Assembly: GCA_964458115.1 (NCBI GenBank)
Contig: CAYWIC010000001.1
Coordinates: 11,984-75,983, forward strand
Origin: an uncultured Anaerolineales bacterium
GTDB taxonomy: Bacteria; Chloroflexota; Anaerolineae; Anaerolineales; UBA11858
DNA length: 64,000 bases
Direction: 5' to 3'
The position numbers were made by a program, and so were the translations under genes. Positions 32,148 to 58,252 of this stretch are shown here, one piece after another. A model generated the notes under the pieces. The model saw only the letters and a program-made list of their open reading frames with translations, was not told where the DNA came from and made no database searches. How positions within the stretch are numbered: the first letter of the stretch is position 1; every line of letters starts with the position of its first letter.

Positions 32148-33656
32148 TTATGCCGGCAGTTCAATTGTGAATCGAGTCCCCCTCCCTAACTCACTTTCAA
32201 CCCCAATCTTCCCCCCGTGCATTTCGACAATCGACTTGGCGATTGCCAATCCCAATCCGGTTTCGCCACCCTCGCCGTTGCGGGCGTCATCCACACGATA
32301 GAAGCGGTCGAATATGCGCGAGATGTCGGATGGATTGATTCCCGTTCCAGTATCTGCAACGGAAAATTTGACCGACGGCTGACCGCTGACTGCTGACTGC
32401 TGGCTGCTGACCGCAATCATCCCATCTTCAGGAGTATAGCGCAGAGCATTGCTGACCAGGTTGCCCAGCACTTGCATCATGCGGTCAGGGTCAGCGTTGA
32501 TGCGTGGCAGGCCTGCTTCGGTCTGGATGGAGAGTTCGATGCCTTTTTGGTCAGCGGCGTGTTGATAGGCCGCCTTCACTTGCTCTAGCAATCCAAGAGG
32601 GGCAATCGGGGCGCGGTTGAGAGAGAGTTCCCCAGCTTCAGCCAGCGAGAGTGTGCGCAGGTCTTCGACCAGACGTTGTAGTTGATGAACTTCTTTGTGC
32701 ATCGTTTCCAGCCGCTCGGGTGTAGGTTTTAGCACGCCATCTCGCATAGACTCGATATACCCGCCGATGACTGACAACGGAGTTCGTAAGTCATGTGCAA
32801 TATCGGCCGTCATCTGGCGGCGTTGTTCGCTGAGGTGGGCCAGATCGGCGCTCATCTGGTTGAAGTCGCTCGCCAATTGGCCGATCTCGTCTTTTGAGTG
32901 AACAGCCACCTGACGACCGAACTCCCCCGTAGCAGTGTGGCGAATTGCGGTGGTCAGTTCGCGCAAGGGACGGGTCAGTCCACGGGTGAGCACCAGGCTG
33001 ATCACCAGGGCGATGCCCATGGCTCCTAGAGTAGCGTAGATCAGCGACTGATTGGTGCGCTCCAAAAATAATTCTTCACGTTTTGCCAAAGGGGGAATAT
33101 CCCCTGTGGCAATGACTGTGCCCACGGCTTGACCGTCGATCTCAATGGCGGTGCCGCTCTCCCACTGGTCTTCAGACAGGAAATCTCCCATGCGGTACTC
33201 GCCAGCCGGGACGACCACTCGCCCGCGGATGTCGATAAGTGCAAAGGTAAGGGGTTGGTTGCCCACTGCATTGCCAAGATTATCTTGCGGTGGTGGCTGT
33301 TGAGCGGGTTGTTGTGGAGGAGGTTGTTGTTGGGCTGGCGCTTGCCCTGGTTGGCGCGGTTGCTGACCCTCAGGCGGATTCTGTAATACCCCAGCTGGTT
33401 GCTGTTGCGGAAGTTGTCCTGGAGGGTTACTCTGTTGATTCTGGCGGCGGAAGATCGATGCCGCAAACCCCTGCCACGAGCCGGTAGCCTGGTAATAAGT
33501 TGTCGCCCGGTCGATGAAGTTATTCTGGGCGTTGCTAAAGGCCAGCCTTTCGAAATCTCGTTGCGTGGTGAAGCGCGTGATCGCCGCGGCTAAAAGAGCC
33601 ACAGTAAGGCTGATGGCCAGAAATGCCAGGAGCAGTTTGGGAGCCAGTGAACGCAT
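32148..33656 (-). CDS. sensor histidine kinase (HAMP-HisKA-HATPase) with Pro/Gln-rich insert in the extracytoplasmic domain
   Basis: Two TM helices, a HAMP domain, H-box AHDLRTPL, and N/G boxes ([26 protein letters not shown]). The sensor loop holds about 70 aa of P/Q-rich sequence. Confidence 0.9.
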
Positions 33657-33707
33657 AGTTTCAATGAATAGTAACCAGTGGGAGGCGGGCAGAAAACTGA
33701 ATGCCGT

Positions 33708-34403
33708 TCACTGTCCACTGTCCATTGTCTGAAAGCGATACCCAACCCCAAAGACGGTCTCGATGCGCTGCGGGTTGCTGGGGTCGGTCTCGATCTTCGT
33801 ACGCAGGTTACGGATGTGCACATCTATCGTGCGCTCGACGCCCTCGAAGGCTGTACCCTGCAAACTTTCCAGCAGATCCAGACGGGAGAAGACGCGTCCC
33901 GGGGCAGTCATCAGCACTACTAACAGATCGAACTCCGAGGGGGTCAGATCGACGTATTGATCCCCCACCTTTACGGTGTGCTCGTCCTGGTTGAGGGTGA
34001 TCCCGCCTCCGCGCAGAATATTGGCCGGCGGCGCGGCCTGGCTGGTACGCCTCAGCACCGCCCGGATGCGGGCGACGATTTCCTTCATGCCAAAGGGCTT
34101 GGTGACGTAGTCGTCGGCGCCTAACTCCAGGCCCAGCACCTTGTCCGTCTCTTCTAATTTGGCAGTCAGCATGATGATGGGCGTATCGCTCTCTTTGCGG
34201 TAGTGGCGCATAAAATCATAGCCGCCCATCTCGGGCATCATGATATCGAGGATGATCAAGTCGGGTTTTTCGTGGCGCGCCACAAAGAGAGCTTCTCGGC
34301 CGTTCTCGGCAGTGACTACCTGGAAGCCCTCTTCGGTGAGATATTCTCTCAGCAGCGTACGCACATTGGCTTTGTCGTCTACGACGAGGATTGTTTTGGT
34401 CAT
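33708..34403 (-). CDS. OmpR/PhoB-family response regulator
   Basis: Receiver domain (ILVVDD, DLIILDIMMP, LTAK) and a winged-helix output (LTPSEFDLL..., RTIDVHIRNLRTKIE, VFGVGYRF). The start is placed at the ATG at 34403. Confidence 0.9.
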   Translation of the reverse strand: MTKTILVVDDKANVRTLLREYLTEEGFQVVTAENGREALFVARHEKPDLIILDIMMPEMGGYDFMRHYRKESDTPIIMLTAKLEETDKVLGLELGADDYVTKPFGMKEIVARIRAVLRRTSQAAPPANILRGGGITLNQDEHTVKVGDQYVDLTPSEFDLLVVLMTAPGRVFSRLDLLESLQGTAFEGVERTIDVHIRNLRTKIETDPSNPQRIETVFGVGYRFQTMDSGQ

Positions 34404-34480
34404 ACTGTTATTGTACCTAAAAACTCCCGAAGACCCTAAAGGTCTCAAAGTAGTTCAATGGGATTTCCCGTGAGAGGCCT

Positions 34481-34531
34481 CACATTTGGGGGTATGGGGC
34501 GTGCTCCGCTCGCCCCATACCCCCAAATGTG
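34481..34531. repeat. long palindromic element (TTTGGGGGTATGGGGCG family), copy 1
   Basis: 21-nt perfect arms CACATTTGGGGGTATGGGGCG / CGCCCCATACCCCCAAATGTG with a 9-nt loop. It lies between the secreted-protein gene and the response regulator gene. Confidence 0.75.
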
Positions 34532-34590
34532 GAACATTGCATCGGCAATTCCTGGAGATCGCTCAATGACCTTTTGGGTCTAGAAAAAAT

Positions 34591-36021
34591 CTACGGCGTC
34601 GCCTTCCAGGTCAAATAATCGAAGGTCAAACCATTGTTGTCAAAGTGAGTTGGCCGCAGCCAGCCATGATAGGTGCCCACACCTGGTGTAAATTGATAGC
34701 AATAGTACTCAGTCTCCGAGATGGGCCAGATGGCAGATTGGCCGTAAGAGGCATTCTCGCAATCCGACTTGCTCGGCTCGTCTGCAAAGGCTTCTGAAAA
34801 CAGCGCTTCTTTGGGCACAATCTGCATCACAGTGAGGGTATTTCTGATCATTTTCCTGAATAACAATCCAGCGAAAACACCGCTGCATTGTTCGTTGAGT
34901 TGGCCATTCTGAACATCGAAACACTCCCCGGTGAGCATGGAGACCTGATCGCCCTGGCTCTCGACGAAAAGAGCATTGGGGTTAATGGGCTGCATCTGGG
35001 GTGGATCGGCTTCAAAGGTCACAAAATCGAAGGTAACGCCATTCTGGTCGAAGCGTTCTACCCGGATCCAGCCGTAGGTCGTATTGACAATATTGCTGAT
35101 TTGGAAGCAGAAGTACTTATCTTCCAGGGCTGAATGCGCCATCGGGAGATACACCTCAGCTTCACAGGCGGCTTTATCGGGCTCGTCATCACGGTTAGTT
35201 GCCAGCTCGGTGTTGTTTTCACCATGAAATTTTCCGCTCGTCACGGGGTTGAACTGATACATGATGTCTGCAGACGAGTCGTTGCAATCTACTTCCTGAC
35301 CGTTGTTCAGGTCGAAGCATTGCCCGTTCAATAGAGTCTCACCGCTACCCGTTGTCTGCGCTTCGGGATTGCTTTCCGGTTCAGGGGTTGGGGACGGGGT
35401 GTTGCCGCCGCTGGGGATGACTTTGATCGCAACTCTCAGCGGGCTATTCGGCGGAGCGTCCATCCCAAAAACATGACCCTGTGCATCGATCATCTTCCAT
35501 GCAGAGACGTAAGCACCCGGTTGAGAAGGGGCCTGCATTTCGACAGATAGCGTCGTCGAGTGCCCCGGTGCTACTGGCGTAGAAAGAGAAAGAATTTCCT
35601 CTGAAACGCCGATATCGCCTCCCAGCATCTTCAATTTGTATTGCGGGTTCCAGGTGCAGTCGCCGGTATTCTCGATTGTCCAATTGACCTGGAAGACATC
35701 ATCTGGCTGGAACTGCTGGCCGTTGGTGACATTGGCGTTGGCGATGAAGCCATCGCTGCATTGAACCCCGTCCTGGGGCTGGGAAGGCTGAACCGGTTGA
35801 TTTGGTTCCGCTGGCTCAGGAGCCTCAGCCTGTTCAGGTTCTTCCTGTTGTTCAGGGGGAGTTTCAGTCTCAGATTCGGTTGCATCAGGTTGTTGAACAG
35901 TTTGATCCTCGGGAGGAGAATCCGCCTCGGGGGTCTCGGATAATCCTGGTAGGGAACAGGCAAATTGTGCTAGGGCTAACGTAATGATTATCGACATTAG
36001 AACAATGACTTTGTACTTCAT
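34591..36021 (-). CDS. secreted protein: acidic/Pro linker, NBR1-FW-like Ig domain, two paralogous ~120-aa 4-Cys domains
   Basis: Signal peptide MKYKVIVLMSIIITLALAQFAC after AAGGAGG. NBR1-like segment FQVNWTIENTGDCTWNPQYKLKMLGG...GAYVSAWKMIDAQGHVFG. Internal duplication GQCFDLNNGQ.../GECFDVQNGQ.... Confidence 0.6.
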   Translation of the reverse strand: MKYKVIVLMSIIITLALAQFACSLPGLSETPEADSPPEDQTVQQPDATESETETPPEQQEEPEQAEAPEPAEPNQPVQPSQPQDGVQCSDGFIANANVTNGQQFQPDDVFQVNWTIENTGDCTWNPQYKLKMLGGDIGVSEEILSLSTPVAPGHSTTLSVEMQAPSQPGAYVSAWKMIDAQGHVFGMDAPPNSPLRVAIKVIPSGGNTPSPTPEPESNPEAQTTGSGETLLNGQCFDLNNGQEVDCNDSSADIMYQFNPVTSGKFHGENNTELATNRDDEPDKAACEAEVYLPMAHSALEDKYFCFQISNIVNTTYGWIRVERFDQNGVTFDFVTFEADPPQMQPINPNALFVESQGDQVSMLTGECFDVQNGQLNEQCSGVFAGLLFRKMIRNTLTVMQIVPKEALFSEAFADEPSKSDCENASYGQSAIWPISETEYYCYQFTPGVGTYHGWLRPTHFDNNGLTFDYLTWKATP

Positions 36022-36087
36022 GACTGCCTCCTTTGGAGTACTCTCCATTTACTCGTTTGAAAAACATGAATCTTGTAAAGTGGTCTT

Positions 36088-36135
36088 AGGATAGCACAGA
36101 GATGTTCAGAAGTTGTTTAGATTGTGTTTAGCACC
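36088..36135 (-). promoter_or_regulatory. regulon promoter (a): extended -10 plus three phased 11-bp direct repeats
   Basis: On the forward strand, AGGATA at 36088-36093 corresponds to TATCCT on the coding strand, followed by GCA (TGC). After 9 bp come TGTTCAG (36103), TGTTTAG (36114) and TGTTTAG (36125). Confidence 0.6.
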
Positions 36136-36187
36136 ACGATAGAAGTTGTAAGAAACAAAGGATTGTTCTCAAGAAGTTGCCAAGATG

Positions 36188-36250: not shown

Positions 36251-36353
36251 TTCACCGAGTTTCACAATAATCATTATTAAATTGGAGTAATAAGGTACAA
36301 ATTATGATTTATAATTGGTATTATGAAATAAGTTGCACAAAGGAGGTTTTTTT

Positions 36354-37547: not shown

Positions 37548-37567
37548 AGCAAAGTGAGGTTATTATC

Positions 37568-38577: not shown

Positions 38578-40110
38578 CTAAGGTCTGTTCTCAGGAATGC
38601 AAACAAGCTGTGATTGCCTGATTTGACAAGAGCCGCTAACTTCCTTGTTGGGGTGTTGGATGGTACAAGCCGCGCCGACGACCAAGCTTTTGCAGGCATC
38701 TAACGCCCTTTGGTGTTGTTCGTTGTTCCTTTGAGTGCCTTCTGCTTCCGGGGGCTCAGCTATGAGCGTTTCCCCAGGTTCAAGGGTCAGGTTAGCCAAT
38801 CCTGGGTAATCGGCAGCGAATTTTGTCATGCGAAAGACATTATCGCCAAAATCATAGCTCCAGACGATTTCGCCCTCTTGCGTGACCTCGAAGAAATAGC
38901 CATTGGTGCCGCTGCAGATAAGCGTATTGCCATTGGGCAAACGCTGCGCCCCGGAGATGTGGTCGGCGAAGAAGTCGGTGGGGTTATCGGCCGCGTACGT
39001 CCAGGTGGGAGCCTCGGGACCAAATGCTGCACCAGGTGTCAGGTTATAGCTGCCATCATCGTTTAAGGGCGGAATGATTTCATCTATGGTGGAGTAGGCA
39101 CGGGCAGCCTTGTGCCCGTTGTTGAACACTAAGATATTGCCTCCACCAGGATAATCGGTGGGAATCCATTGAGTGTCATGCTGAACATAAAGCTGTCGAT
39201 CATCTGCGGTTCCAGAGTCATAGGCCTCAGGGTTGCCCCAACGATAGAGTAGGTCACCCGCGGGTCCGGCCGCTTCTTCGGTGGTTGTGTCGTGATCGAT
39301 AATCCAAATCTCGCTAAACCCATGCACGCTGAGCATAATCTGGTCCAGTTCAGGGTTGTAGTCGATGGCATTGGTGTGGTTCCAGTCCGCGCTGGGTTCG
39401 CGAGCGATGTGATTTAGATTGATCAACTCAGGATGCTCGGATACTGTGCCGTAGTTCTCTTTGGTGGCATCGTAATCCTGAATGAGATGATCCCAGACAT
39501 GCCACTCCCAGACGATTTGATCGGTGCTGGGATCCACCTCGATGATGTGATCTGGCCAGAGTTCGCCGTCCTTCAGCAAGCTAGGATCGCGCCCGGCGGC
39601 GATGGCTTCGGCGCGTGTCTTATACTCCCAGGCGATCATCAGGATGTTACCGTTGGGAAGTTGCTCGATATCGTGATGCAGTTGCACCTGGTTGTTGGCA
39701 TATCTGAATTCCCAGACGATAGTATTGTCGGGGGCGATCTCTTGCACCACTCCGCCAGATCCACCGGCATCGAATACGCCTGTTTTTTCCGTGCCGGGTT
39801 GCAGTAGGTTGCCGTTCTCCAACAGATAGACCGAATTACCAGGGGTGTAGTCGCTCTCCCAGGTGTAGAAGGCCACGCCCTCGGCGTTCATCAGGTGCGT
39901 TTCAGTGGAACGGATCGGGGAGAAAAAATATAGCCCTTCGGATGCGATCTGTTCTTCTGGGGATGGCACATTGTTTTTAACAGAATCATCTGTTACCGAA
40001 TCTTCGCTCGTAGCCTCAGCGATTGTTTGATCAGTGAAGCCTGCGAGGAGTGAACAGGCCAGAGTAGTGATGAGGGTAATCGTGATCAGGAGAATTTTTT
40101 TGCTGTGCAT
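38578..40110 (-). CDS. arylsulfotransferase (ASST)-like beta-propeller lipoprotein with C-terminal 4-Cys module
   Basis: Lipobox LITTLAC, then LENGNLL, HHDIEQLPNGNIL, WHVWDHL, DWNHTNAIDYN and SEIWIIDH motifs. The C-terminus is QRALDACKSLVVGAACTIQHPNKEVSGSCQIRQSQLVCIPENRP. Confidence 0.6.
   Translation of the reverse strand: MHSKKILLITITLITTLACSLLAGFTDQTIAEATSEDSVTDDSVKNNVPSPEEQIASEGLYFFSPIRSTETHLMNAEGVAFYTWESDYTPGNSVYLLENGNLLQPGTEKTGVFDAGGSGGVVQEIAPDNTIVWEFRYANNQVQLHHDIEQLPNGNILMIAWEYKTRAEAIAAGRDPSLLKDGELWPDHIIEVDPSTDQIVWEWHVWDHLIQDYDATKENYGTVSEHPELINLNHIAREPSADWNHTNAIDYNPELDQIMLSVHGFSEIWIIDHDTTTEEAAGPAGDLLYRWGNPEAYDSGTADDRQLYVQHDTQWIPTDYPGGGNILVFNNGHKAARAYSTIDEIIPPLNDDGSYNLTPGAAFGPEAPTWTYAADNPTDFFADHISGAQRLPNGNTLICSGTNGYFFEVTQEGEIVWSYDFGDNVFRMTKFAADYPGLANLTLEPGETLIAEPPEAEGTQRNNEQHQRALDACKSLVVGAACTIQHPNKEVSGSCQIRQSQLVCIPENRP
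38581..38712 (-). other. 4-Cys module, copy in ASST-like protein 1
   Basis: QRALDAC-x7-AC-x11-C-x8-CIPEN. Confidence 0.6.
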
Positions 40111-40166
40111 GTTGGTTTGCTCTGCGTATCATTCTTAGAGATGAAAAATTCATATAGTTGGAGTTG

Positions 40167-41495
40167 TTAGTCCGATGGAGCGTCATCTAGCGGGGTGCCG
40201 TCGAAACCGGGGTAGTCAGGGTAGTAGCGCTCGACGCGGAATACAGCGTTCCGATCGGGATCGGGCTCTTGGACCTGGTATTCCCAAACCTTTTCGCATG
40301 ATGGGGTCACCTCGAAGAGGTAGGAGTTCCCCCCATGGCAAGTCAGTGTGTTGCCATTGGGAAGTCGTTGAGCTCCCGAGATGGATTTTGCGTAGAAGTC
40401 GGTGGGGGGCTCTGCTGTGTAAATCCAAACTGGGTCGCTGGGACTGTATGCGGAGCCCGCATCAAGGGGATAACTGCCATCGGAGTTCACCGGCGATATG
40501 ATCTCGACGATCGAAGAGTATCTCCCTTCGGGGCGTCTCATGCCGTTGTTGAAGACCAGGATATTCCCCTCACCTGGCAGCCCAGCGCCGATCCACTCGG
40601 CATCGTGTTGGTGAAAGAGCTGCTGATCGGCGGCAGTCCCTGCATCGTATGTTTGGGGGTTGCCCCAGCGATAGAGCAGGTCACCGCCCATCCCGCTATT
40701 GCCACCTGTGTGACCAGCCGCTTCAGCAGTTGTTGTGCTGTGGTCGATGATCCAAACTTCGCTGAAGCTGTGGACACTCAGCAAAATCTGATCCAGTTCG
40801 GCGTTGTAATCAACGGCGTTGGAGTGGAACCAATCGGCGGCATTGAACCCGACATAGTTCAGGTCAATCAGCTCGGGGTGGTTGGCAACGACGCCGAAGT
40901 TATCTTTGGTGGTATCATAATCCTGAACGAGATGATCCCAGGCATACCATTCCCAGACAATATCGCCCGATTTGGGCCCGGTGGGTTGCACCTCGATGAT
41001 ACTGCCTGGCCACAACTCGCCATCGTTCAAAAGCGATGGATCGCGACCTGCGGCGAGGGCCTCAGCCTCAGTCTTGTACTGCCAGGCGATCATCAGCACG
41101 TTGCCGTTGGGCAGCATCTCGACGTCATGGTGCTGCAAGTGTGTGTTGCTGGAGTACTCGTACTCCCAAGTGACATTTCCATCCCAGTCGATCAACTGGA
41201 CGATGCCGCCAGCACCGTCCGCTCTGAAGATGCGGTTACGCGCACCGCCAGTGTAAAGTAGTTGGCCGTTTTCCAAGAAGTAAACTACATTGCCAGGTTT
41301 GTAGTTGGTTTCCCAGGAGTGGACTATGTTGCCTTCAGTGTCCACCAGGTTGACTGTCGTTGTGTGGAGTAATACGAACAGGTTGTAGCCTTCCGTGCCA
41401 GGTTCTTCCTGACCAGCGAAAGCGCTCATAAATGTCAAGGCTAAAACCAACCCCGTGATGAAAATGATGGGGATGATGCGGATGATTTCCTTCAT
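40167..41495 (-). CDS. arylsulfotransferase (ASST)-like beta-propeller protein, paralog without 4-Cys module
   Basis: The same motif set: LENGQLL, HHDVEMLPNGNVL, WYAWDHL, DWFHSNAVDYN and SEVWIIDH. The ATG at 41495 (MKEIIRIIPIIF signal) follows GGAG. Confidence 0.6.
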   Translation of the reverse strand: MKEIIRIIPIIFITGLVLALTFMSAFAGQEEPGTEGYNLFVLLHTTTVNLVDTEGNIVHSWETNYKPGNVVYFLENGQLLYTGGARNRIFRADGAGGIVQLIDWDGNVTWEYEYSSNTHLQHHDVEMLPNGNVLMIAWQYKTEAEALAAGRDPSLLNDGELWPGSIIEVQPTGPKSGDIVWEWYAWDHLVQDYDTTKDNFGVVANHPELIDLNYVGFNAADWFHSNAVDYNAELDQILLSVHSFSEVWIIDHSTTTAEAAGHTGGNSGMGGDLLYRWGNPQTYDAGTAADQQLFHQHDAEWIGAGLPGEGNILVFNNGMRRPEGRYSSIVEIISPVNSDGSYPLDAGSAYSPSDPVWIYTAEPPTDFYAKSISGAQRLPNGNTLTCHGGNSYLFEVTPSCEKVWEYQVQEPDPDRNAVFRVERYYPDYPGFDGTPLDDAPSD

Positions 41496-41506
41496 GCTGA
41501 TCTCCA

Positions 41507-41565
41507 TTCTTCCCTCACCCCCAACCCCTCTCGCTCAGCGAGAGGGGTTGGGGGTGAGGGAAGAA
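41507..41565. repeat. 59-bp near-perfect palindrome filling the intercistronic gap
   Basis: TTCTTCCCTCACCCCCAACCCCTCTCGCT-C-AGCGAGAGGGGTTGGGGGTGAGGGAAGAA, located between the stop at 41568 and the downstream start. Confidence 0.8.
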
Positions 41566-41567
41566 AT

Positions 41568-43166
41568 CTATGGTTGCCCTCCTGAGCCCGTCGAAGGGCC
41601 ACCCTCTGGAGGCGGTCCACCACCGCCAGGGCCACCTTCGGGCACACAAGCTAGCGTACTTTGGATATTTGTACAGCTACCGTCTAGGGTTCCTCGTGGA
41701 GTATTGATGGTACAGGCTGCCCCTTCACTCGAGGCTGAACAAGCATCGATGGCTTCCTGGGGGGGTGATCCCTGATCGCCCGGGCCTTGTCCCAAACCAG
41801 TTGAAGGGAGTTGGCCAGCTTGCTGCTGAGATTGACTTGCAAACTCAGAACCAGTTCCAATGTTTGGGTCCGTTTCGCCGCCGGTGAGAACTTCTCCGGT
41901 GGTGCCGCCGGTTACGCAGCGGGCATAGTTGTAGATGCGTACGGCGTCACCTTGCGGGCCATGGCCTGTTGGATAAACAGAAGGATCACCACTTTTTTGC
42001 TCAGCCCGTTGAGCCCCAGCGCCATGGACATCCATCCAGGTGCCGTTCATATAGCCCATCGAGCGACCGAAGTTGATGTATACACCCGAACGACTAAAGC
42101 CATCAGCATTGGTGTGTGTGGTGCTGCTCCAATAGGCTGGATAATCTGATTGACCAGCTTCGTTCGTGATCAGAGTGACATTGAAGATAGGATCGATGGC
42201 TGCTGAGTTGGTTGTGTCTGGTGAGCGAGAGTAATCGATGATGCTGTGCAACTCTTTGGCATTGGGGAGACGCCAATCGCTAATTCCACCATAATCCAGG
42301 CTGGAGCAGTAATTCAAAGCACCTTCCCAGTCCAGTGAATTACCGCTATCGGATTGCATCCAGGTCAGGCCGGTTGCATTGTCGGTTACCATGCCGTTGC
42401 CCTCATCGACGAATTCGTTGACTCCGTAGCTGGTGTTGTCGCGTACGTAGATTACGAAGAAAGTTTTGGCAGAGCGGCCATGCAGCGCTTCAGTCCCGTA
42501 GCCCTTGATGCGTCCATCGGCAAAGTTGACACCAAACATGGTTTCATGGCCGTTCATGGTGGTGCTGACATATCTGGTGCTGGTAGCCCACTGAGAGTCG
42601 ATGATACGATCACCGCTGGATGTGTCTCCATACTTGAAGACGAAGTAATCGGTATCGATGAAAGGAATTCCTGTGCAGGTTCCTTCTTCGACACACCGGC
42701 TGACGTCGGTGCCGCTGAAATCGATCAATGAATAAAGCTCTTTGATGGTAGGTAAGCGCCAATCGTTGTACCCACCCAAAGTCAGACTGGAAGCACCCGC
42801 AACCGCTTGGTTGTAGGTCATCTTCTCGCCAGGATCCTGCTGCCATATCAAACCTGTCACCAGGTCGGTCACTGTGCCGTCACCATTATCCTGGTAGCTT
42901 GCCTGGGTGCCGACGACCTGACCATCCTGTCCGTAGAAGGATTTGCCTTCTTCGGGGCAGGGGATGCTGGTTGAATCGCTATAGCAGTATTCCTGTCCAG
43001 TATCAACGATGGCATAACTATAGACAGATGCGTTGGCAGTGTCTTGCTCTGCAGTTGGGGCAAGTGAGTCAGCGCTAACTGAAGTCAGAGGGTAGACTGC
43101 TCCGCTGGCTGATAATATGAAAGCGATTGCGATTGCAATCATTAGGGTTTTTCTTTTCTTGTTCAT
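41568..43166 (-). CDS. secreted protein with two DUF1566 (Lcl C-terminal-like) domains and C-terminal 4-Cys module
   Basis: A signal peptide, then WRLPTIKELYSLID and WRLPNAKELHSIID motifs. The C-terminus is PPQEAIDACSASSEGAACTINTPRGTLDGSCTNIQSTLACVPEG plus a Gly/Pro tail. Confidence 0.65.
   Translation of the reverse strand: MNKKRKTLMIAIAIAFILSASGAVYPLTSVSADSLAPTAEQDTANASVYSYAIVDTGQEYCYSDSTSIPCPEEGKSFYGQDGQVVGTQASYQDNGDGTVTDLVTGLIWQQDPGEKMTYNQAVAGASSLTLGGYNDWRLPTIKELYSLIDFSGTDVSRCVEEGTCTGIPFIDTDYFVFKYGDTSSGDRIIDSQWATSTRYVSTTMNGHETMFGVNFADGRIKGYGTEALHGRSAKTFFVIYVRDNTSYGVNEFVDEGNGMVTDNATGLTWMQSDSGNSLDWEGALNYCSSLDYGGISDWRLPNAKELHSIIDYSRSPDTTNSAAIDPIFNVTLITNEAGQSDYPAYWSSTTHTNADGFSRSGVYINFGRSMGYMNGTWMDVHGAGAQRAEQKSGDPSVYPTGHGPQGDAVRIYNYARCVTGGTTGEVLTGGETDPNIGTGSEFASQSQQQAGQLPSTGLGQGPGDQGSPPQEAIDACSASSEGAACTINTPRGTLDGSCTNIQSTLACVPEGGPGGGGPPPEGGPSTGSGGQP
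41634..41765 (-). other. 4-Cys module, copy in DUF1566 protein
   Basis: PPQEAIDAC-x8-C-x12-C-x8-CVPEG. Confidence 0.6.
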
Positions 43167-43202: not shown

Positions 43203-43240
43203 ATATTAGCAAACGCATGTTCAGAAGTTGTTTAGAAGTT
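43203..43240 (-). promoter_or_regulatory. regulon promoter (b)
   Basis: The coding strand reads ACTTCTAAACA ACTTCTGAACA, then 9 bp containing TGC, then TAATAT. On the forward strand the repeats are at 43218 and 43229 and the hexamer at 43203-43208. Confidence 0.6.
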
Positions 43241-44002: not shown

Positions 44003-44040
44003 ATCGTACCAATTCGTTGTTCAGAAGCTGTTTAGGAGCA
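44003..44040 (-). promoter_or_regulatory. regulon promoter (c)
   Basis: The coding strand reads CTCCTAAACA GCTTCTGAACA, then 9 bp containing TGG, then TACGAT. On the forward strand the repeats are at 44018 and 44029 and the hexamer at 44003-44008. Confidence 0.55.
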
Positions 44041-51671: not shown

Positions 51672-51674
51672 TTT

Positions 51675-53288
51675 TCAAGCTCTCTGTACCTGAATTGCCG
51701 ATTGTCCTTCCATAGGGCAATTGTATTCACAAATTCCGCAGCCAATACAAAGATCACGAACAACGTAGGGTTGCTGCAAGTAAATTTCTCCACCCCATTC
51801 ATCTATCGCGGTGACCTCTTCTAGCCGGATGGCTTTATCCGGAACCGGGCACATCTCCTCGCAGACAATGCAGTCAGTGGCATAGGCCCAGGGCAGGCAG
51901 CGGTTTTGGTCCAGGACGGCTAATCCCATCACCTGCTCACGCTTTGTTTCCAGATCCAAAACGGGGATTGCTCCACTGGGGCACGCTTGCCCGCAAGCGG
52001 TACAACTGTAATCGCAAGGACCCAGCCGCGGTACCAGGTAGGGAGTCCACAGTCCTTCTAATCCCGCTTCCAATAAAGCCGGCTGTAAGCCTGTCGTCGC
52101 GCAAACTTGCATGCACTCACTGCAGTGGATACATTTGGAGAGAAAATCATCTTCATCTTCGACTCCCGGAGGGCGGATCAGGCGCGGGTCGGGCGATTTT
52201 GCGGCAGCGTTCGTGCCCATCATCAGCGCGCCGGCGGCACCCATCCCCAGCGAGACCAATGCCTGACGACGGCTGGGATCGTACTCCTGTGCCAATACAG
52301 GGTGGGTCTGCCAACGAAAAGCGATGCTGCTGTCTGGACACTCAACAAAGCAATCCATGCACAGGGTGCACTCTGATGGGATGATTTCCTGGGGATGGAT
52401 CCCATTTCCGTTATGCGCCTGGATGGCTTCCATCTGGCATTCGCTGATGCAGTGACCGCAGTGATTACATTGGGGTTTGATGAGTGGTTTGAACAGGGAA
52501 AACTTCGAGAGCCAACCCAACAACCCGCCCAACGGACACAGATAGCGACACCAAAAGCGATCCGCCAGGGCGTTTAGGGCCAGTATGCCCGCGAAAAGTG
52601 CGAAGATGAATATGTTCTGGGCATAGGCTGACTGGATCGAAGGTAAAACCACACCGCGCAGTGCGCTCTCGATCCAGTTGATCGCCGGTTGAAATAAGGG
52701 ATATTGGTATAAGGCGAACTCAAGCTGCGTGATTCCATAATTGAGCGCTGGGAGCAGGCCGGTGGTGATCGCACGGGTGATGATGGTGATAGGATCGAAG
52801 ATCAGCAGCGCCAGGCTGCCTAACAGAGCCATCCCCAGGGTTAGCAGCAAGAGCACATATTTAACTGACCTCCAGCGCGGCGAGACCTTTGCAGAGCGTT
52901 GATAAGCCCCCGAAAATCGGACCCACTCCAGGGTGGTGCCCATGGGACAAATCCACCCACACCATACCCGACCTAAAAGAAGAGTCACGCCCAGAGTGAT
53001 CAGCGCCCAGCCCATCGTAGGTATCCAGGCGCGGTCGGCGATCATGGCCGTCAGCGCCGTCAGGGGATTGAGACGAAAGAACAAACCTGATTGGGGTGAA
53101 GCCTCTCCTGCGCTCCAGTTGACCAGCAGCAAGTAGAGGAATAGCAACAGTGTCAGGATTTGCACAACCTGGCGAACTCTGCGCCAGCGGCTCCACTTGA
53201 GGGTTGGTTCTTTGGAAGGGGTGAGTTGCGTATCTTGGTTTGCCATCTTATTGGGATGAGAATCCTTGCTTGTAGTCGAGATTTCCAA
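51675..53288 (-). CDS. membrane-bound polyferredoxin (NapH/NosR-like membrane domain plus multiple 4Fe-4S motifs)
   Basis: CGWICPMGT and FWCRYLCPLGG membrane Cys motifs, plus CNHCGHCISEC, CTLCMDCFVECP, CIHCSECMQVC, CTACGQACP, CIVCEEMCP and CIGCGICEYNCP. Confidence 0.75.
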   Translation of the reverse strand: MEISTTSKDSHPNKMANQDTQLTPSKEPTLKWSRWRRVRQVVQILTLLLFLYLLLVNWSAGEASPQSGLFFRLNPLTALTAMIADRAWIPTMGWALITLGVTLLLGRVWCGWICPMGTTLEWVRFSGAYQRSAKVSPRWRSVKYVLLLLTLGMALLGSLALLIFDPITIITRAITTGLLPALNYGITQLEFALYQYPLFQPAINWIESALRGVVLPSIQSAYAQNIFIFALFAGILALNALADRFWCRYLCPLGGLLGWLSKFSLFKPLIKPQCNHCGHCISECQMEAIQAHNGNGIHPQEIIPSECTLCMDCFVECPDSSIAFRWQTHPVLAQEYDPSRRQALVSLGMGAAGALMMGTNAAAKSPDPRLIRPPGVEDEDDFLSKCIHCSECMQVCATTGLQPALLEAGLEGLWTPYLVPRLGPCDYSCTACGQACPSGAIPVLDLETKREQVMGLAVLDQNRCLPWAYATDCIVCEEMCPVPDKAIRLEEVTAIDEWGGEIYLQQPYVVRDLCIGCGICEYNCPMEGQSAIQVQRA

Positions 53289-53362
53289 ATCTCGTAATCA
53301 CGGGATCGCCCTGCGCGCCTTTGGCGTGGATATCCCGACTACAGAAGCAATTTGCAGTGCTA

Positions 53363-54295
53363 TTAAACAGCAACCTCTTCAATCTTCAAGCTGTCCAGAT
53401 CCAGCGTCCCCAAGCCCATCTCGGCGCCCAAACGCAGGGCATCGATATCTGCTCCGGTCAGGCCGAAGAAGGTGGTTGCATAAGCGCCTGTAGCTACAAA
53501 ATCCTGGCTGGCGATGATGGTATTCATCTGCTTGACATCGCTCAAGTTGCCGCCCCTGGGGCCGCGGGCCATAAGAATGTTGACTGCATCCATGATCGTC
53601 AGTGTGGGGCGGATCAGGCTGGCGAGGTCTGCCAGACGTTGGCCCAGTTTGCGGTGGAATTTGTTGCGCTGGGTGATCACGCCCATCAGGTTCTTCATGC
53701 TCAAGGTCAGCCGTGACAGACTGTGGTGTTTGGCTATGGGAACATTGATCACCACATCGGCATCGAGAATGTCACCATAGACAGACCAACTGGAGATGTC
53801 GAGCCCTTCAGGGATATCGACTGTGCGGTACTTAATGTCGCTCATCACCTCCGTTTGACCTCCGGCAGCGATGACAGCATCCCCAATACCGCTGCGAGCG
53901 TAAACCTGTTCGCAGGTGCTGCTGGAAGGTTTATCCATCATACGGACGCGCCCCGCACCAGCACCTACACAGAGTTCTGTGATGGCGTCGACAACCTCGG
54001 GGTTTGTGTAAGCAGCGTATTCATACGAGTAATCGGCAGCGACGATGTTGGGTTTGATGATCACATCATCCCCAGGCTTGACAAAAAGCTCAATGCCGCC
54101 CAGCGCTGCGATAGCCGCCTGCACCAGGGCTGTGGGGCTGGCGCTGGATCCTCGTGTGACAGTCATGTCAAATTTTGTTTCAATATTTTCCTGATCTGTA
54201 AGGGTAAGTAGGTTTCTCCCAAAGGTGGTACTGAAGCCACCAACTGCCAATAATTGAAGAAACTCCCGTCTGGATATGGAAGGTTTGTCGGTCAT
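53363..54295 (-). CDS. Tat-exported DUF362 domain protein
   Basis: Twin-arginine signal SRREFLQLLAVGG and a DUF362-like VIIKPNIV motif. Confidence 0.65.
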   Translation of the reverse strand: MTDKPSISRREFLQLLAVGGFSTTFGRNLLTLTDQENIETKFDMTVTRGSSASPTALVQAAIAALGGIELFVKPGDDVIIKPNIVAADYSYEYAAYTNPEVVDAITELCVGAGAGRVRMMDKPSSSTCEQVYARSGIGDAVIAAGGQTEVMSDIKYRTVDIPEGLDISSWSVYGDILDADVVINVPIAKHHSLSRLTLSMKNLMGVITQRNKFHRKLGQRLADLASLIRPTLTIMDAVNILMARGPRGGNLSDVKQMNTIIASQDFVATGAYATTFFGLTGADIDALRLGAEMGLGTLDLDSLKIEEVAV

Positions 54296-54340: not shown

Positions 54341-54383
54341 ATCATACCAAAAAGATATTCAGGAATTGTTCAAAAATGTTTGG
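54341..54383 (-). promoter_or_regulatory. regulon promoter (e), degenerate copy
   Basis: The forward-strand hexamer ATCATA (54341-54346) corresponds to TGGTATGAT on the coding strand. After 9 bp come TATTCAG (54356), TGTTCAA (54367) and TGTTTGG (54377). Confidence 0.45.
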
Positions 54384-54490: not shown

Positions 54491-55222
54491 TCAGCGCAAA
54501 TTAAAGCGCCATTTCAAGTAATTGCGCTTAGCAACTTGTTCTTGCAACAAGCCCCATAGATCACGGAAGGCTTTGATAATCACCCGGATATCTGCTCCTG
54601 TAGCCTCACCACCGACGCGCGGACGATGTGTTACCGGTACTTCCTCGATTCTACATCCCAGTCGCCGGGCGCTGGAGAGAAATTCCGTATCGATTAGCGC
54701 ACCATCCGAAGTGATATTCACACATTTGAGTACGTCACGCCGAAATAGCTTGAACCCGCAATCGATATCCCGGCACAAATAGCCAAAAAGAATGCGAATG
54801 AGAGTATTCCAGCCAAAAGCGTTGAATTTACGTAGGAAAGGGTCGCGCCGGGGCGCACGGTAGCCACAAACGATATCAGCGTTTGCAGCTTCCTGGTGTT
54901 CAAGTAGGCGTGTGATTTCCTCAAAATGGAATTGGTTGTCGGCGGGGAAGAAAGCAATCAGGTCTTTTCGAGCGGCAGCAAACCCCGCTTTGAGCGCCCC
55001 CCCATAACCACGGTTAGGGTAGTGCTCTACCAGGCGGAATTCAGGGATATAAGCGGCCAGTTCACGCCCAATCTCGCCTGTGTGGTCGCGGCTGCCGTCG
55101 TTGACCAGGATGATCTCATGATCGAGGCCAAGGTTTTGTGCCACACCGGCTACTTCGGCGACTGTTGTGCGTACATTGGCTTCTTCGTTATATGCGGGTA
55201 AGACGATGGATAAACTTTTCAT
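54491..55222 (-). CDS. GT2 polyprenyl-phosphate glycosyltransferase (ArnC/GtrB/DPM1-like)
   Basis: LSIVLPAYNEEANV start, DGSRD motif, and an ED-containing acceptor loop. Confidence 0.85.
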   Translation of the reverse strand: MKSLSIVLPAYNEEANVRTTVAEVAGVAQNLGLDHEIILVNDGSRDHTGEIGRELAAYIPEFRLVEHYPNRGYGGALKAGFAAARKDLIAFFPADNQFHFEEITRLLEHQEAANADIVCGYRAPRRDPFLRKFNAFGWNTLIRILFGYLCRDIDCGFKLFRRDVLKCVNITSDGALIDTEFLSSARRLGCRIEEVPVTHRPRVGGEATGADIRVIIKAFRDLWGLLQEQVAKRNYLKWRFNLR

Positions 55223-55263
55223 GATAAACCTCTTTTTTGTAGAGATGTTCCGGCGGAGCGTCT

Positions 55264-55653
55264 CTACCGAAAAACTACCATTTTGTTCAAGATAAAATTC
55301 CAGCCAAAGGCGGCGCCGGTTGCCAGTACAAGGGAGATGACTTCACTAAGATTAAACGTCTCTAGACCGAGATACATGACACCGGCATTGATTCCCAGGG
55401 CGGCGATGTGGGTCAACGTGAACAAGAAAGCCGCCTTCCAGGTTGGGACACGGTATGCCGTATCCTTGCTCTTGAACGTCCAGTTGCGGTTCCAATAAAA
55501 ACTGTTGGTCATGCCAACAGCGTAGGCAATCCCTTTGGCCAGTACGGGCAGGGGCTCCAGCCACAGCCAGCGAGTTAGTACATAGTAGGTCGCTGCGTCG
55601 ATGAGGGTGTTGGATACGCCCACAGCCGCATATTTGATGACCTGTGAAATCAT
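55264..55653 (-). CDS. GtrA-family membrane protein
   Basis: MISQVIKYAAVGVSNTLIDAATYYVL start, four TM helices, and FGWNFILNKMVVF at the end. An alternative upstream start is at 55716. Confidence 0.7.
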   Translation of the reverse strand: MISQVIKYAAVGVSNTLIDAATYYVLTRWLWLEPLPVLAKGIAYAVGMTNSFYWNRNWTFKSKDTAYRVPTWKAAFLFTLTHIAALGINAGVMYLGLETFNLSEVISLVLATGAAFGWNFILNKMVVFR

Positions 55654-55699
55654 CTTCAAACCTTGAAAGTTTTCAAAACCTTCAAGGTTTCTCTTTGCG

Positions 55700-58072
55700 T
55701 TAGCTTCCGCAGTCATAGAGCACCTCTTCGGTTTGCCCGCCGGGGCTACCTGGGCCGCCTTGAATTTGGGGCATCGTAATCACGCCCGGCACATCGACCA
55801 CGCTACAGCTATTTCTCATCCATTGGGCGATCTCCTGCTTTTGCTGTGGGATGCCGAGGATGTAGCGCAGATCGCCGTTATCAATCATCTCAATCAACTC
55901 TCCCAGACTGATCACATCATCTCTGCCGCCGAAGCCGCCAAAGGTCAGCACTGCCCGATCCGATTCCAAGAGGTAGGGCGCCGCACCGCGGGCGTTGAGC
56001 GTAGCTAGTAGATAATCGTCAGGATCGGTGTTGGCCAGTGTGTAAACCAGGATGGCTTGCCCATTTGCGCTCAACGTAGTCACATCTGGGGTCATGAAGG
56101 TTGAGCGGGTGCGGTCGGATGCTGAAATGCCTGCGGTGGGGAGCCCCACGTTGGGATTGGGATTCAGCGTGGTCAAAGCAGACCAGGTGAGCGGGGCAAC
56201 CAGCATAGCGATTAGCACCAAGGAGAATCCGATTTTGTGGGCCGGGATCAGTTTACTCAATGCGAGGATGCCGATTCCAGCCAGCCAGATTAAGATGGAT
56301 ATCGCCGTAACCCAGCCTGCGTACTCCGGATAGTTTTGAATGATGTAGATCTCGAAGATGATCGTCAGCCCGGTAATGAAGGCCGTGACCAGCCAACCGA
56401 GGGTGGGGTTCTGTTTCCAGTGTTTGGCGACGCTCCAGAGGCTGATCCCAACTAAGGCCGCTAGTGGGGGTCCAATCATAATCAGGTAGTAGCGATGGAA
56501 CAGGCCGGTAGTGAAACTGAAATAAGCCATGGAGGGCAGCAGCCAGCCAGCCCAGAGCAGCAGGCTGTTGTGCTTACCATTCAGCGGCCATGACCAGCCT
56601 GTGGCGACCAACGCAACGGGCAGTCCCAACAATACCAGTGGCAGCAACCAGCTGGCCTCAGTGACCAGGGGCTCTTCGAACAGGCGCAGCACACCCGCTG
56701 TTCCAGTCTCTCCGCCGTTCATGTTACCCCGTCCTGAGCCTGTCGAAGGGCCACGTCCACCAACCTGCCCGCCGTCGATACCTTGGCCGCCAGGAGGGCC
56801 ATCGGGGAATTGTCCGTCAGGACCGTCTGGGAATTGACCAGGAACGTTGGCGGTTGATGACGTCGGTGGCGGCTGGCGCCCTTCCGGTACACAAACCAGG
56901 TCTCCACTCTGATTGTCATAACAAGTGCCATCGATGGTGTTGCCATTTCGTAAATTGACCGTGCAGTCTTCGCCAGTTCTCAAATCAGTACAGGCCTCCA
57001 GAGCTTCGGGTGGTGGTTGGCGATTAATTCCTTGGGGCTGATTCCCATCGAGAACGGAATTCTGCCCAGGAGGGCCCAACCCACCCTGAGGTCGCGTCGT
57101 TTTTCCATCTGGAGGGCTATCGCTAAATTGTGGGGCCTGGCCTGAATTTATGGAGGAGCCATCGGCTCCAACCCGGAGGCCTTGCCCTGAGTTTATCGAA
57201 GGGCCATCGGCGCCGCCTGGGCCACCAAGGCTCATATTTAAACGCTTCAGCCCGTTATGGCCGACGATTAACTCCATAACGGTGTTGTCTTCGCTGCTGC
57301 CAATATAGGGGCGCTCGTCCACAGGGGTCAAGTCTACTACCACCACCCAGGCCAAGGAGACAACCAACAGAACAATTGTCGCCACCCCAAGCTGGAGGAT
57401 GCGTTTCCACCAGGCATTGCGAGCGCCCAATAAATAGACGGCATAGAATGCGGGCAAAACCATATAGGCTTGCAGCATCTTGATATTGAAGCCCAGCCCA
57501 ACCAGTACCGCACCTAGCAACAGATGCCGGGTTTTCCCTGACTCAGCAGCCTTGAGAAACGCCCAGGCTGCCAGCAACGACACGAAAACCAGTAGGCCGT
57601 CGATGGTGTTGTTGCGCTCAGTGGCGATGGTCACGGGGACTAGTGCTAACACCAGAGCAGAAATCAACCCAGCCCAGATACCGAAATATTTGCGAACTAA
57701 ATGGTAGAGCACCGGGATGGAGAGCGTTCCGGCCAAGGCCTGTGGCAGCGCCAGAGCGAAGCCATTGATACCCAGGAAATAGGCCGAAACCGCTTGCACC
57801 CAGAATCCCAAGGGGGGTTTGTCGACGGTTACGGAGCCGCCCGGCTCGAAGGAGGCGTAGAAGAAATTGTGCCAGGAAGTCAGCATCGATTTGACCGTGG
57901 CAGCATAGTACGTGTTGCCGATAGTGTAAGTTCCCAATTGGTAAAAGCGCAAAAAGGCACCCAGTGCAACGATCGCCAACAGCCCAATACCGCCGATGAT
58001 CTTTTGGCGGCTGAGGTTTAGTGTCCGCGTCTGGGATGTGTTTGTTGGTAGGGTTTGCGTTTCTGTGGTCAT
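55700..58072 (-). CDS. GT-C fold glycosyltransferase (family 39, ArnT/PMT-like) with 4-Cys module inserted in its Gly-rich extracytoplasmic loop
   Basis: N-terminal PMT_2-like TM bundle (DKPPLGFW, ERNNTIDGL), then YIGSSEDNTVMELIVGHNGLKRL, an insert of about 190 aa of G/P/Q-rich sequence holding the module, then more TM helices. The ATG at 58072 follows GAGGA. Confidence 0.8.
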   Translation of the reverse strand: MTTETQTLPTNTSQTRTLNLSRQKIIGGIGLLAIVALGAFLRFYQLGTYTIGNTYYAATVKSMLTSWHNFFYASFEPGGSVTVDKPPLGFWVQAVSAYFLGINGFALALPQALAGTLSIPVLYHLVRKYFGIWAGLISALVLALVPVTIATERNNTIDGLLVFVSLLAAWAFLKAAESGKTRHLLLGAVLVGLGFNIKMLQAYMVLPAFYAVYLLGARNAWWKRILQLGVATIVLLVVSLAWVVVVDLTPVDERPYIGSSEDNTVMELIVGHNGLKRLNMSLGGPGGADGPSINSGQGLRVGADGSSINSGQAPQFSDSPPDGKTTRPQGGLGPPGQNSVLDGNQPQGINRQPPPEALEACTDLRTGEDCTVNLRNGNTIDGTCYDNQSGDLVCVPEGRQPPPTSSTANVPGQFPDGPDGQFPDGPPGGQGIDGGQVGGRGPSTGSGRGNMNGGETGTAGVLRLFEEPLVTEASWLLPLVLLGLPVALVATGWSWPLNGKHNSLLLWAGWLLPSMAYFSFTTGLFHRYYLIMIGPPLAALVGISLWSVAKHWKQNPTLGWLVTAFITGLTIIFEIYIIQNYPEYAGWVTAISILIWLAGIGILALSKLIPAHKIGFSLVLIAMLVAPLTWSALTTLNPNPNVGLPTAGISASDRTRSTFMTPDVTTLSANGQAILVYTLANTDPDDYLLATLNARGAAPYLLESDRAVLTFGGFGGRDDVISLGELIEMIDNGDLRYILGIPQQKQEIAQWMRNSCSVVDVPGVITMPQIQGGPGSPGGQTEEVLYDCGS
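56879..57016 (-). other. 4-Cys module, copy inside the GT-C enzyme
   Basis: PPPEALEACTDLRTGEDCTVNLRNGNTIDGTCYDNQSGDLVCVPEG. Confidence 0.6.
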
Positions 58073-58214
58073 GACTTTGTCCTCGAGTATTTTCATCGCG
58101 AGAAGCCTGCAGTAGGCGTGGCGACGAAGAGATCTGCTACTAATAGTGGGAGACTGCTTCGCCAAGCTGAACTTTGCTCAGCCGCTCGCAGTGACATTAT
58201 TCTTGAGTGTCCAA

Positions 58215-58252
58215 AGCTTAGCAAAGAGATGTTCAGAAGTTGTTTAGAAGTG
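58215..58252 (-). promoter_or_regulatory. regulon promoter (d)
   Basis: The coding strand reads ACTTCTAAACA ACTTCTGAACA, then 9 bp containing TGC, then TAAGCT. On the forward strand the repeats are at 58230 and 58241 and the hexamer at 58215-58220. Confidence 0.6.

Follow-up and report, generated by a model that had tools for sequence, protein, structure and literature searches.

The window analysed here is a stretch of 64,000 nucleotides (64 kb) from contig CAYWIC010000001.1 of an uncultured Anaerolineales bacterium of the phylum Chloroflexota. On its minus strand lie five transcription units that begin with the same arrangement, tandem 11-bp direct repeats followed at a fixed distance by a TAnnnT hexamer, together with the genes of an OmpR-type response regulator and a histidine kinase (Table 1). 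We call the repeats the box, and on the comparisons set out below we regard it as likely that this adjacent two-component system controls all five promoters as the local portion of its regulon. The surroundings are those of an ordinary chromosomal region with genes for DnaE, SerRS, and ABC and MFS transporters. The nearest species representative, the metagenome-assembled genome (MAG) CAYTKR01, is syntenic with the window (L040, L066 and L083; loci from other genomes are referred to by such numbers).

The gene calls of the initial annotation were each confirmed by Pfam. The regulator combines a receiver domain (REC, PF00072, 1.9e-32) with a winged helix (PF00486, 1.9e-26), which places it in the OmpR/PhoB family; residues D9, D10, D53, T80 and K102 are invariant in the alignment of its orthologues, and its best PDB relatives are MtrA and RegX3. 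It is indeed the single OmpR-type regulator of the window, the other regulator (51039-51671) being of NarL type. The extracytoplasmic domain of the kinase comprises about 170 amino acids and is divided in the alignment into two conserved segments by a variable P/Q-rich insert; Pfam detected no cytoplasmic PAS domain in the kinase. Orthologues of the kinase gene follow the regulator gene in L003, L018, L033, L045, L046, L077, L022 and L165-L171. Among the products of the five units, the GT2 protein of the glycosylation trio is a polyprenyl-phosphate glycosyltransferase with the ArnC model as its best NCBIfam match. The true start of the GT-C protein is probably the in-frame ATG 58072 and not TTG 58165, because this ATG is preceded by a GAGGA Shine-Dalgarno sequence and yields a match to the N-terminus MTTETQT of the 91%-identical L040 orthologue.

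Table 1 Features of the window discussed in the text (forward-strand coordinates; promoter elements as read on the coding strand)
Feature	Position	Strand	Description
Histidine kinase	32148..33656	-	Transmembrane (TM) segment 3-31, extracytoplasmic 32-202, TM 203-228, HAMP, HisKA, HATPase
OmpR/PhoB-family response regulator	33708..34403	-	REC + winged helix; candidate repeat-binding protein
Regulator-kinase promoter, box-less	34404..34415	-	TACAAT 34415-34410, 6 nt before ATG 34403
Palindrome	34483..34529		21-bp perfect stem between NBR1-Ig and regulator genes; CATTTGGGGGTATGGGGCG-loop-reverse complement
NBR1-Ig protein (PF16158)	34591..36048	-	Secreted/lipoprotein-like; N-terminal hydrophobic segment ending ...FAC
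Promoter 1	36088..36146	-	-10 TATCCT (36088-36093), 9-nt spacer with TGC, proximal unit from 36103, estimated transcription start site (TSS) ~36081; precedes the NBR1-Ig gene it is predicted to drive
Promoter 1 repeats	36103-36135; 36136-36146	-	Three perfect 11-bp units; degenerate fourth unit
Lcl_C/ASST operon	38578..43166	-	DUF1566/Lcl_C secreted protein 41568-43166; ASST-like beta-propellers 40167-41507 and 38578-40110
Promoter 2	43203..43239	-	-10 TAATAT (43203-43208), spacer TGCGTTTGC, two perfect units 43218-43239, estimated TSS ~43196
Stand-alone GGDEF protein	43395..43955	-	186 amino acids; GGDEF motif intact, no sensor domain
Promoter 3	44003..44039	-	-10 TACGAT (44003-44008), spacer ACGAATTGG, two perfect-heptamer units 44018-44039, estimated TSS ~43996
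DUF362 unit	51675..54295	-	Twin-arginine (Tat)-signal DUF362 protein 53363-54295; NapH/NapG-fusion-like membrane polyferredoxin 51675-53288
Promoter 4, degenerate	54341..54377	-	-10 TATGAT (54341-54346), spacer TCTTTTTGG, units attcCTGAATA + atttTTGAACA, proximal unit from 54356, estimated TSS ~54334
Glycosylation trio	54491..58165	-	YkcB-like GT-C (PMT_2 + YkcB_C, open reading frame 55700-58165), GtrA-type 55264-55716, GT2 54491-55222
Promoter 5	58215..58273	-	-10 TAAGCT (58215-58220), spacer TCTCTTTGC, two perfect units 58230-58251, estimated TSS ~58208
Four-Cys module copies	41637-41765, 38590-38715, 56882-57016, 49090-49215, 48844-48969	-	Five in the window

Both strands of the window were scanned with the template [CTrAACA-N4-CTGAACA]-N9-TAnnnT, mismatches being counted over the 14 core positions. 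This yielded five sites, four of them perfect and one with two mismatches, all intergenic, on the minus strand and pointing toward genes, compared with a chance expectation of 0.01 sites at up to two mismatches (mean of 200 shuffles). No further site was found in the whole 64 kb at up to three mismatches on either strand, and the sole matches with four mismatches in the window (249-284 and 18261-18293) are no more than expected by chance. Each site reads [4 nt + CTAAACA][4 nt + CTGAACA]-9 nt-TAnnnT on the coding strand, the proximal 11-mer lies 15 nt from the start of the hexamer at all five sites, and TGn stands directly 5' of the hexamer in every case. From the hexamer to the start codon there are 37-48 nt with a GGAG-type Shine-Dalgarno sequence, the GT-C unit being the exception. 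At promoter 5 two weaker in-phase units follow further upstream, including CTTTACA at 58263-58273. All site coordinates given in the initial annotation proved correct, and so did its description of the copy at 54341 as degenerate, with one mismatch in each heptamer (CTGAATA, TTGAACA). We argue that this site is functional because better copies precede the same gene in L007 (exact) and L040 (one mismatch). The partial look-alikes that had been set aside as non-sites, 35831-35855 and 49746-49767, are absent from the template scan at up to four mismatches; the second was also read directly.

The initial annotation had further claimed that the direct repeats are helically phased, abut the -10 element and replace a -35 element, and this agrees with our data. 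A sigma-70 consensus scan returned no -35/-10 pair at the three boxes inside 32000-44200, and the hexamer 16-18 bp 5' of each -10, read directly, lies inside the repeat (ACAACT, AACAAC or CAACTT), far from TTGACA. The window promoters thus have the features of the pho-box type, at least two 11-bp direct repeats that end about 10 bp from the -10 in the absence of a -35.

Comparison with related genomes, which had been named as a check, revealed that the box and its 9-nt spacing recur across Chloroflexota. An exact scan for the 17-mer CTAAACANCTTCTGAACA in 185,579 genomes, one per species, gave 83 matches in 82 stretches, where about 69 chance matches are expected in total (1.19e12 positions / 4^17). 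Of these matches, 56 fall in about 40 MAGs labelled Chloroflexota, with the labels Anaerolineae/Anaerolineales, Caldilineae/Caldilineaceae, Chloroflexia, Thermoflexales, Aggregatilineales and Phototrophicaceae. TAnnnT stands at exactly +9 in 54 of the 56 Chloroflexota matches, in contrast to 2 of 27 in other phyla. The two outsiders are L019, from a MAG labelled Rhodothermales, and L082, from a MAG labelled Kapaibacterium; their boxes could be due to mis-binning or horizontal transfer, and L019 encodes a regulator 62% identical and a kinase 40% identical to the window pair. Over 57 unique sites the four-unit consensus is cTTTACA..nnAACa..CTAAACAacttCTGAACA, followed by a T-rich spacer TCTtTTTgc and the -10 TAtaCT. 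Since this consensus includes two extra in-phase half-sites, cTTTACA at -22 and nnAACa at -11 from the first core, the full element consists of four 11-bp units. Strict copies number only 1-3 per MAG, which marks the box as a specific operator, not as an element of promoters in general. TGn is missing from about half of the sites of other MAGs (e.g. tcttttttcTATACT), with the geometry still exact.

The assignment of TAnnnT as the -10 element is based on the boxed regulator genes themselves. In L003, L018, L033, L037 and L046 the regulator ATG follows exactly 6 nt after the hexamer behind the box, and L077 shows the same pattern if an internal ATG is the true start. Such a gap leaves no room for a ribosome-binding site, suggesting a leaderless mRNA whose first nucleotide is the A of the start codon; TAnnnT would then be the -10 and the repeats would not be transcribed. 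A start 7 nt after the hexamer puts the two core units at -43 to -22, and four units reach about -65. The possibility that the block is an element of the 5' untranslated region (UTR), which the initial annotation had named as fatal to its proposal, is thus argued against by the five regulator genes that begin 6 nt after the hexamer. The spacing TACAAT/TATAAT-6 nt-ATG is found at the box-less promoter of the window pair as well, in L022 and L168, and at the box-bearing orthologues, and the regulator-kinase mRNA of the window is likewise predicted to be leaderless. A -10 placed 6 nt before the ATG without a ribosome-binding site is a trait of the regulator orthogroup that is conserved across Anaerolineae, with mRNAs predicted to be leaderless.

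That the adjacent regulator controls the boxes was a guess when made from the window alone. It is now backed by three lines of evidence. In the motif-first sample, the box lies directly upstream of an orthologous operon of response regulator and histidine kinase (RR-HK) in 7 MAGs; over their full length, the regulators of these boxed operons are 66-71% and the kinases 43-49% identical to those of the window, and the kinases have the same TM-sensor-TM-HAMP layout. In a regulator-first sample of 7 long contigs (L165-L171), chosen without the motif and encoding regulators 75-83% identical to that of the window, a box with at most two mismatches is present at 6 of 7 loci. It stands directly 5' of the regulator gene in L167, L169 and L170, and 5' of the gene or operon that precedes the regulator on the same strand in L165, L168 (an NBR1-Ig gene, as in the window) and L171. 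By comparison, no box was detected, even at three mismatches, in 526 kb around 80 regulators 43-57% identical to that of the window; these were the best 80 of at least 600 candidates from a metagenome scan with the regulator alignment, and none exceeded 57% identity. The recognition-helix region ERT(I/V)DVH(I/V)RNLR(T/A)K(I/L)E hardly varies between orthologues, and wherever the source name of a homologue at least 71% identical is informative, its label is Chloroflexota, Anaerolineales or Longilinea. In L170 (12151-13686) the operon reads RR-HK-MptA_B-family GT-C, and in L171 (7456-12061, a Longilinea MAG) a GT-C-GtrA-RR-HK operon lies behind one box. These fusions of RR-HK operons with GT-C genes strengthen the link between the two-component system and glycosyltransferases.

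Several points weigh against our reading. The whole case rests on sequence comparison, and within it the search pattern dictated the core of the 57-site consensus; free of this bias are only the flanks, the spacing and the sites found by way of the regulator. One regulator-first locus of the seven, L166, is without a convincing box. The TGn of an extended -10 at all five window sites makes basal transcription without an activator possible. OmpR-family paralogues are numerous in these MAGs, and another regulator of equal specificity is conceivable, the scan having covered the fetched loci only. Finally, the regulator gene of the window has no box of its own and is parted from the boxed NBR1-Ig gene by a strong hairpin. 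The initial annotation had placed the pair directly downstream of the first unit, which is right as to position; as a simple distal part of that unit it does not stand, because the palindrome and the separate promoter intervene. The 131 nt around the palindrome (34470-34600) fold with a minimum free energy of -63.2 kcal/mol (z = -6.5). We regard the palindrome as a repetitive extragenic palindrome (REP)-like element because a second copy is present at 63205-63251, both copies being intergenic, and it probably acts as a terminator or attenuator. With this hairpin and a box-less promoter, autoregulation in the window would occur at best by read-through.

The missing box at the window regulator, together with the fact that OmpR-family half-sites of the TnAACA or TTnACA type are common, as known from B. 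subtilis PhoP boxes, is what speaks for a different OmpR-family paralogue or another direct-repeat binder as the user of the boxes, the adjacency then being coincidental or part of a regulatory cascade. We consider this improbable, given the box in front of orthologous RR-HK operons in 7 MAGs and its presence at six of the seven loci sampled by regulator, its absence around the 80 more distant paralogues and the nearly invariant recognition helix within the orthogroup. The regulator encoded at 33708-34403 thus remains the best candidate, and presumably it is this protein that binds the repeats.

If so, the direction of control has to be considered. Extended -10 promoters are able to work without a -35 element, and TGn directly precedes the hexamer at 5 of 5 window sites. 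Basal transcription driven by TGn would mean that a regulator bound over -43 to -22 might in principle act as a repressor by occluding this region of TGn-TAnnnT promoters. Such a repressor is unlikely, however, since about half of the sites elsewhere keep the exact geometry without TGn, RR-HK operons are predicted to be autoregulated from the box, and position and orientation are those of pho-box activators. Moreover, tandem dimers at the equivalent position activate in PhoB and M. tuberculosis PhoP (PMC11825685). From the position of the box, the autoregulated operons and the many sites without TGn we infer activation rather than repression.

The genes behind the boxes indicate what may be controlled. 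The first genes after 69 boxes include 18 GT-C genes, 8 regulator genes and 6 Lcl_C genes, so that the context of promoter 5 is the commonest one in other MAGs. NBR1-Ig, GGDEF and DUF362 genes are each the first boxed gene twice outside the window. Each of the five window units is boxed in at least one other genome. The layout of promoter 1 is kept in L022, L066 and L168, where the box is likewise followed first by an NBR1-Ig orthologue; promoter 2 is kept 5' of Lcl_C genes in L073, L083, L168, L044, L054, L015 and L076, and promoter 3 5' of the GGDEF orthologue in L083 and L073. The gene order Lcl_C-ASST is repeated in L066, L168 and one JGI contig. Other first boxed genes encode Gly-rich DUF5666 secreted proteins, YceI, HlyD, an ABC ATPase, a haem peroxidase, PEBP and DUF4405 proteins, and L169 has a boxed MFP-ABC-FtsX efflux operon. 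Glycosylation, secreted proteins and lipoproteins, and in some lineages efflux, point to envelope adaptation.

Two boxes precede PhoD-like metallophosphoesterase genes and one precedes a gene for a VTC-domain protein, which raises the question of whether the boxes could be true PHO boxes of a Chloroflexota phosphate-starvation (PhoPR/PhoBR) regulon. The four-unit TTnACA-like array just 5' of the -10 does resemble the core site of B. subtilis PhoP, some orthologues of the regulator have the JGI label 'alkaline phosphatase synthesis response regulator PhoP', and PhoB is among the best NCBIfam matches of the regulator. However, no pstS, pst or phoU gene occurs among the approximately 69 boxed first genes of the fetched loci, where GT-C and secreted proteins dominate, and no phosphate genes are present in the window. 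The equivalog cut-offs are missed by both proteins, by the regulator for PhoB (TIGR02154, 230.1 < 296.2; PRK10161, 193 < 471) and by the kinase for PhoR-type models (phoR_proteo, 212.3 < 334.2; PnpS, 218.7 < 400). Because boxed pst and phoU genes and a Pfam PAS domain in the kinase are missing, a phosphate regulon is very unlikely, and on target content and curated model scores this interpretation was largely rejected.

Least probable of all, and rejected on spacing and copy number as far as an extracytoplasmic function (ECF)-type sigma promoter or a general promoter element is concerned, is that the block is one of these, an RNA element of the 5' UTR or a mobile promoter cassette: GAAC in CTGAACA resembles ECF -35 elements and the conservation is unusually high for a transcription-factor site, but GAAC lies 9 bp from the hexamer, far from ECF or sigma-70 spacing, strict copies number 1-3 per MAG and the window regulator's own promoter lacks the block, leaderless regulator genes 6 nt after the hexamer leave the repeats untranscribed and Rfam gives no match, and the boxes occupy orthologous positions before orthologous genes without terminal repeats.

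For the regulon of the adjacent two-component system we propose the following mechanism. The membrane kinase would sense an extracytoplasmic or envelope signal and phosphorylate the regulator. Phosphorylated regulator may then bind the 11-bp direct repeats head-to-tail as one or two dimers, each repeat consisting of a 7-bp core CT(A/G)AACA and a 4-bp spacer A(C/T)TT, with the proximal unit ending 9 bp before the TAnnnT -10. Located at about -43 to -22, and up to -65, the bound repeats could stand in for a -35 element and recruit RNA polymerase with the housekeeping sigma factor. The output would be a remodelling of the surface, in which GT2, a GtrA flippase and the YkcB-like GT-C perform a glycosylation based on polyprenyl-phosphate sugars; further outputs may be the DUF1566/Lcl_C, ASST-like and NBR1-Ig secreted proteins or lipoproteins, the DUF362/polyferredoxin pair and the small diguanylate cyclase. 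In most lineages the boxed RR-HK operon would give positive autoregulation from a leaderless mRNA. In the lineage of the window the box would instead drive the gene just upstream of the pair, which probably depends on its own box-less leaderless promoter. We infer that the five units form one programme, and the envelope origin of the signal is to be understood in the same way.

The BLAST cross-hits between GT-C and secreted proteins are due to a module of about 43 amino acids with four Cys residues, PPQEA(I/L)dAC-x8-C-x8-10-G-x-C-x6-9-L-x-C-x-P; S/T/P-rich linkers were considered as their cause and none were found. In the window the module is located at the C-termini of the Lcl_C and the second ASST-like protein, in an insert in an outer loop of the GT-C protein and twice in the protein encoded at 47584-49605 on the minus strand. 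The latter, 673 amino acids long, has no significant Pfam match and a weak one to LTXXQ (CpxP/Spy-like, E = 0.015); no box was found upstream of its gene. Iteration of a local hidden Markov model detected 37 copies in the motif loci, with copies in at least 16 of 19 clustered GT-C proteins, that of the window being one of the 19. Searches of Pfam, NCBIfam and PDB sequences with the module gave no meaningful match. A profile search of 1.84 billion representative proteins identified 2,271 proteins with the module at E <= 0.001; among the 150 top matches listed, most carry 2-11 matched copies and are 120-360 amino acids long, and the two that were read (P0123 and P0138) have a signal-peptide-like N-terminus. 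Its occurrence in both an enzyme and co-regulated secreted proteins suggests that the module may be a docking or anchoring element, which is speculation at this point. Rather doubtful is the extension that the regulon couples YkcB-type GT-C enzymes to secreted proteins through this element throughout the Chloroflexota, resulting in signal-induced glycosylation of proteins or the surface. If true, the secreted proteins with the module would be candidate substrates of the YkcB family, to which no substrate has so far been assigned.

Some neighbouring features deserve mention. Convergent with the kinase gene, a gene on the plus strand (30093-32042) encodes a 649-amino-acid protein with FG-GAP repeats and a C-terminal sortase domain. 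A second two-component system (49799-51671, plus strand) consists of a HisKA_3 kinase and the NarL/GerE-type regulator (51039-51671); it is divergent from the 47584-49605 gene and tail-to-tail with the polyferredoxin gene, the last one of the DUF362 unit. In another contig a HisKA_3/NarL pair adjoins an Lcl_C/ASST/RR-HK cluster and an acetyl-CoA synthetase gene, i.e. the neighbourhood is conserved. With the start at ATG 58072, the leader of the GT-C gene would comprise about 136 nt (58073-58208, minus strand) and includes hairpin-forming sequence; Rfam and tRNA scans of the window gave no match, and therefore no known riboswitch or leader is present in the GT-C 5' UTR. GT-C leaders of related MAGs (L021, L025, L029, L048, L063 and L069) contain strong hairpins or unusual repeats of short period, such as gtctaaagtctaaagtctaaagtcta (L069) and ggtaactaggtatcaggtaattaggtgattagg (L025).

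Members of the Anaerolineae abound in sediments, digesters and the subsurface, but to our knowledge the genetics of the group is largely undeveloped. For this group the present analysis offers a sequence-defined operator, a predicted geometry of -10 and TSS, evidence for leaderless regulator mRNAs and a list of conserved targets, and it links YkcB-type GT-C enzymes to a specific set of co-regulated secreted proteins. A full-text literature search found no such OmpR-family regulon, and no comparable box or promoter, in Chloroflexota.

Compared with described two-component systems, the window pair is an unnamed OmpR-family pair that scores below every curated equivalog cut-off tested. MtrA (230.8 < 300) and MtrB (180.8 < 450) are missed, as are BaeS_SmeS (273.4 < 500) and BaeR (197.2 < 380). 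BaeSR is nevertheless similar in that the BaeS model aligns over the whole window kinase including the sensor region, and efflux operons are boxed in some MAGs. PmrAB (BasRS) is another OmpR-family system with periplasmic sensing that switches on surface modification by a GT-C (ArnT-like) and a GT2 (ArnC-like) enzyme; the window GT-C matches ArnT only weakly (27 < 567). Both PmrAB and BaeSR differ from the window system in the sequence of the box.

In content, the closest described parallel is YclJK of B. subtilis, which activates yclHI, ykcBC (GT-C and GT2) and yngABC (with the GtrA-type YngA), the last two being proposed to form a multicomponent glycosylation system whose target is unknown (PMC7961091). 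The statement of the initial annotation that the locus could not be matched to a described system is therefore not upheld, since YclJK controls the same kind of GT-C/GT2/GtrA glycosylation genes. In both cases an OmpR-family system acts, to judge by box position in the window, on a GT-C of YkcB type (with a YkcB_C domain in the window protein), a YkcC-type GT2 and a GtrA-type protein; this applies to the GT-C/GtrA/GT2 operon of the window, to 18 other GT-C genes and to L171. The Listeria orthologue PieRS controls an adjacent ABC/FtsX transporter, lmo1505-1506, the counterpart of yclHI in B. subtilis (PMC9545042), and the boxed MFP-ABC-FtsX operon of L169 likewise adjoins the pair. The binding site is a direct repeat in both, but the published YclJ/PieR box, TTCATAnTTT repeats (PMC9545042), bears a loose likeness to the reverse complement of the window box (TTCAGAAGTT): in TTCAGAAGTTG-TTTAGAAGT the pattern TTCA.A..TT is common to the YclJ consensus and the rest differs. 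Furthermore, the window pair is not an orthologue, as it falls below the PieR (171.9 < 450) and PieS (173.4 < 850) models and the MtrA, PhoB, RpaB and YycF models outscore PieR on the window regulator. The YclJ regulon also lacks the DUF1566, ASST-like, NBR1-Ig, DUF362/polyferredoxin and GGDEF targets of the window.

In promoter design, the parallel is with the PhoB/PhoP systems. Common to both are two to four tandem 11-bp units with a 7-bp core and a 4-bp spacer, a proximal unit that ends about 10 bp before the -10, the lack of a -35 hexamer, a regulator of REC and winged helix with a PhoB-like recognition helix and an autoregulated RR-HK operon. The sites of M. tuberculosis PhoP have been described as directly repeated 7-bp motifs spaced by 4 bp (PMC4832192), Streptomyces PhoP recognises repeat units of 11 nt, DRus (PMC2275107), and cryo-electron microscopy revealed that tandem PhoP dimers on PHO boxes displace the contact of sigma region 4 with the -35 (PMC11825685). 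Our four-unit consensus fits this tandem-dimer mode of M. tuberculosis PhoP and the 7+4 bp structure of PhoP repeats. The systems differ in the core, CTrAACA in the window as opposed to CTGTCAT, TCACAGC or GTTCACC, in the absence of pst and pho genes among the targets seen, and in the window kinase with its extracytoplasmic domain of about 170 amino acids and no Pfam PAS domain. Measured against the textbook tandem-dimer design of PhoB, B. subtilis PhoP and M. tuberculosis PhoP, the novelty and interest initially ascribed to the locus were overstated. Altogether, the comparisons support a previously undescribed, phylum-wide and mechanistically conventional two-component regulon of predicted PhoB/PhoP tandem-dimer design, by which the PhoB/PhoP paradigm would be extended and not challenged.

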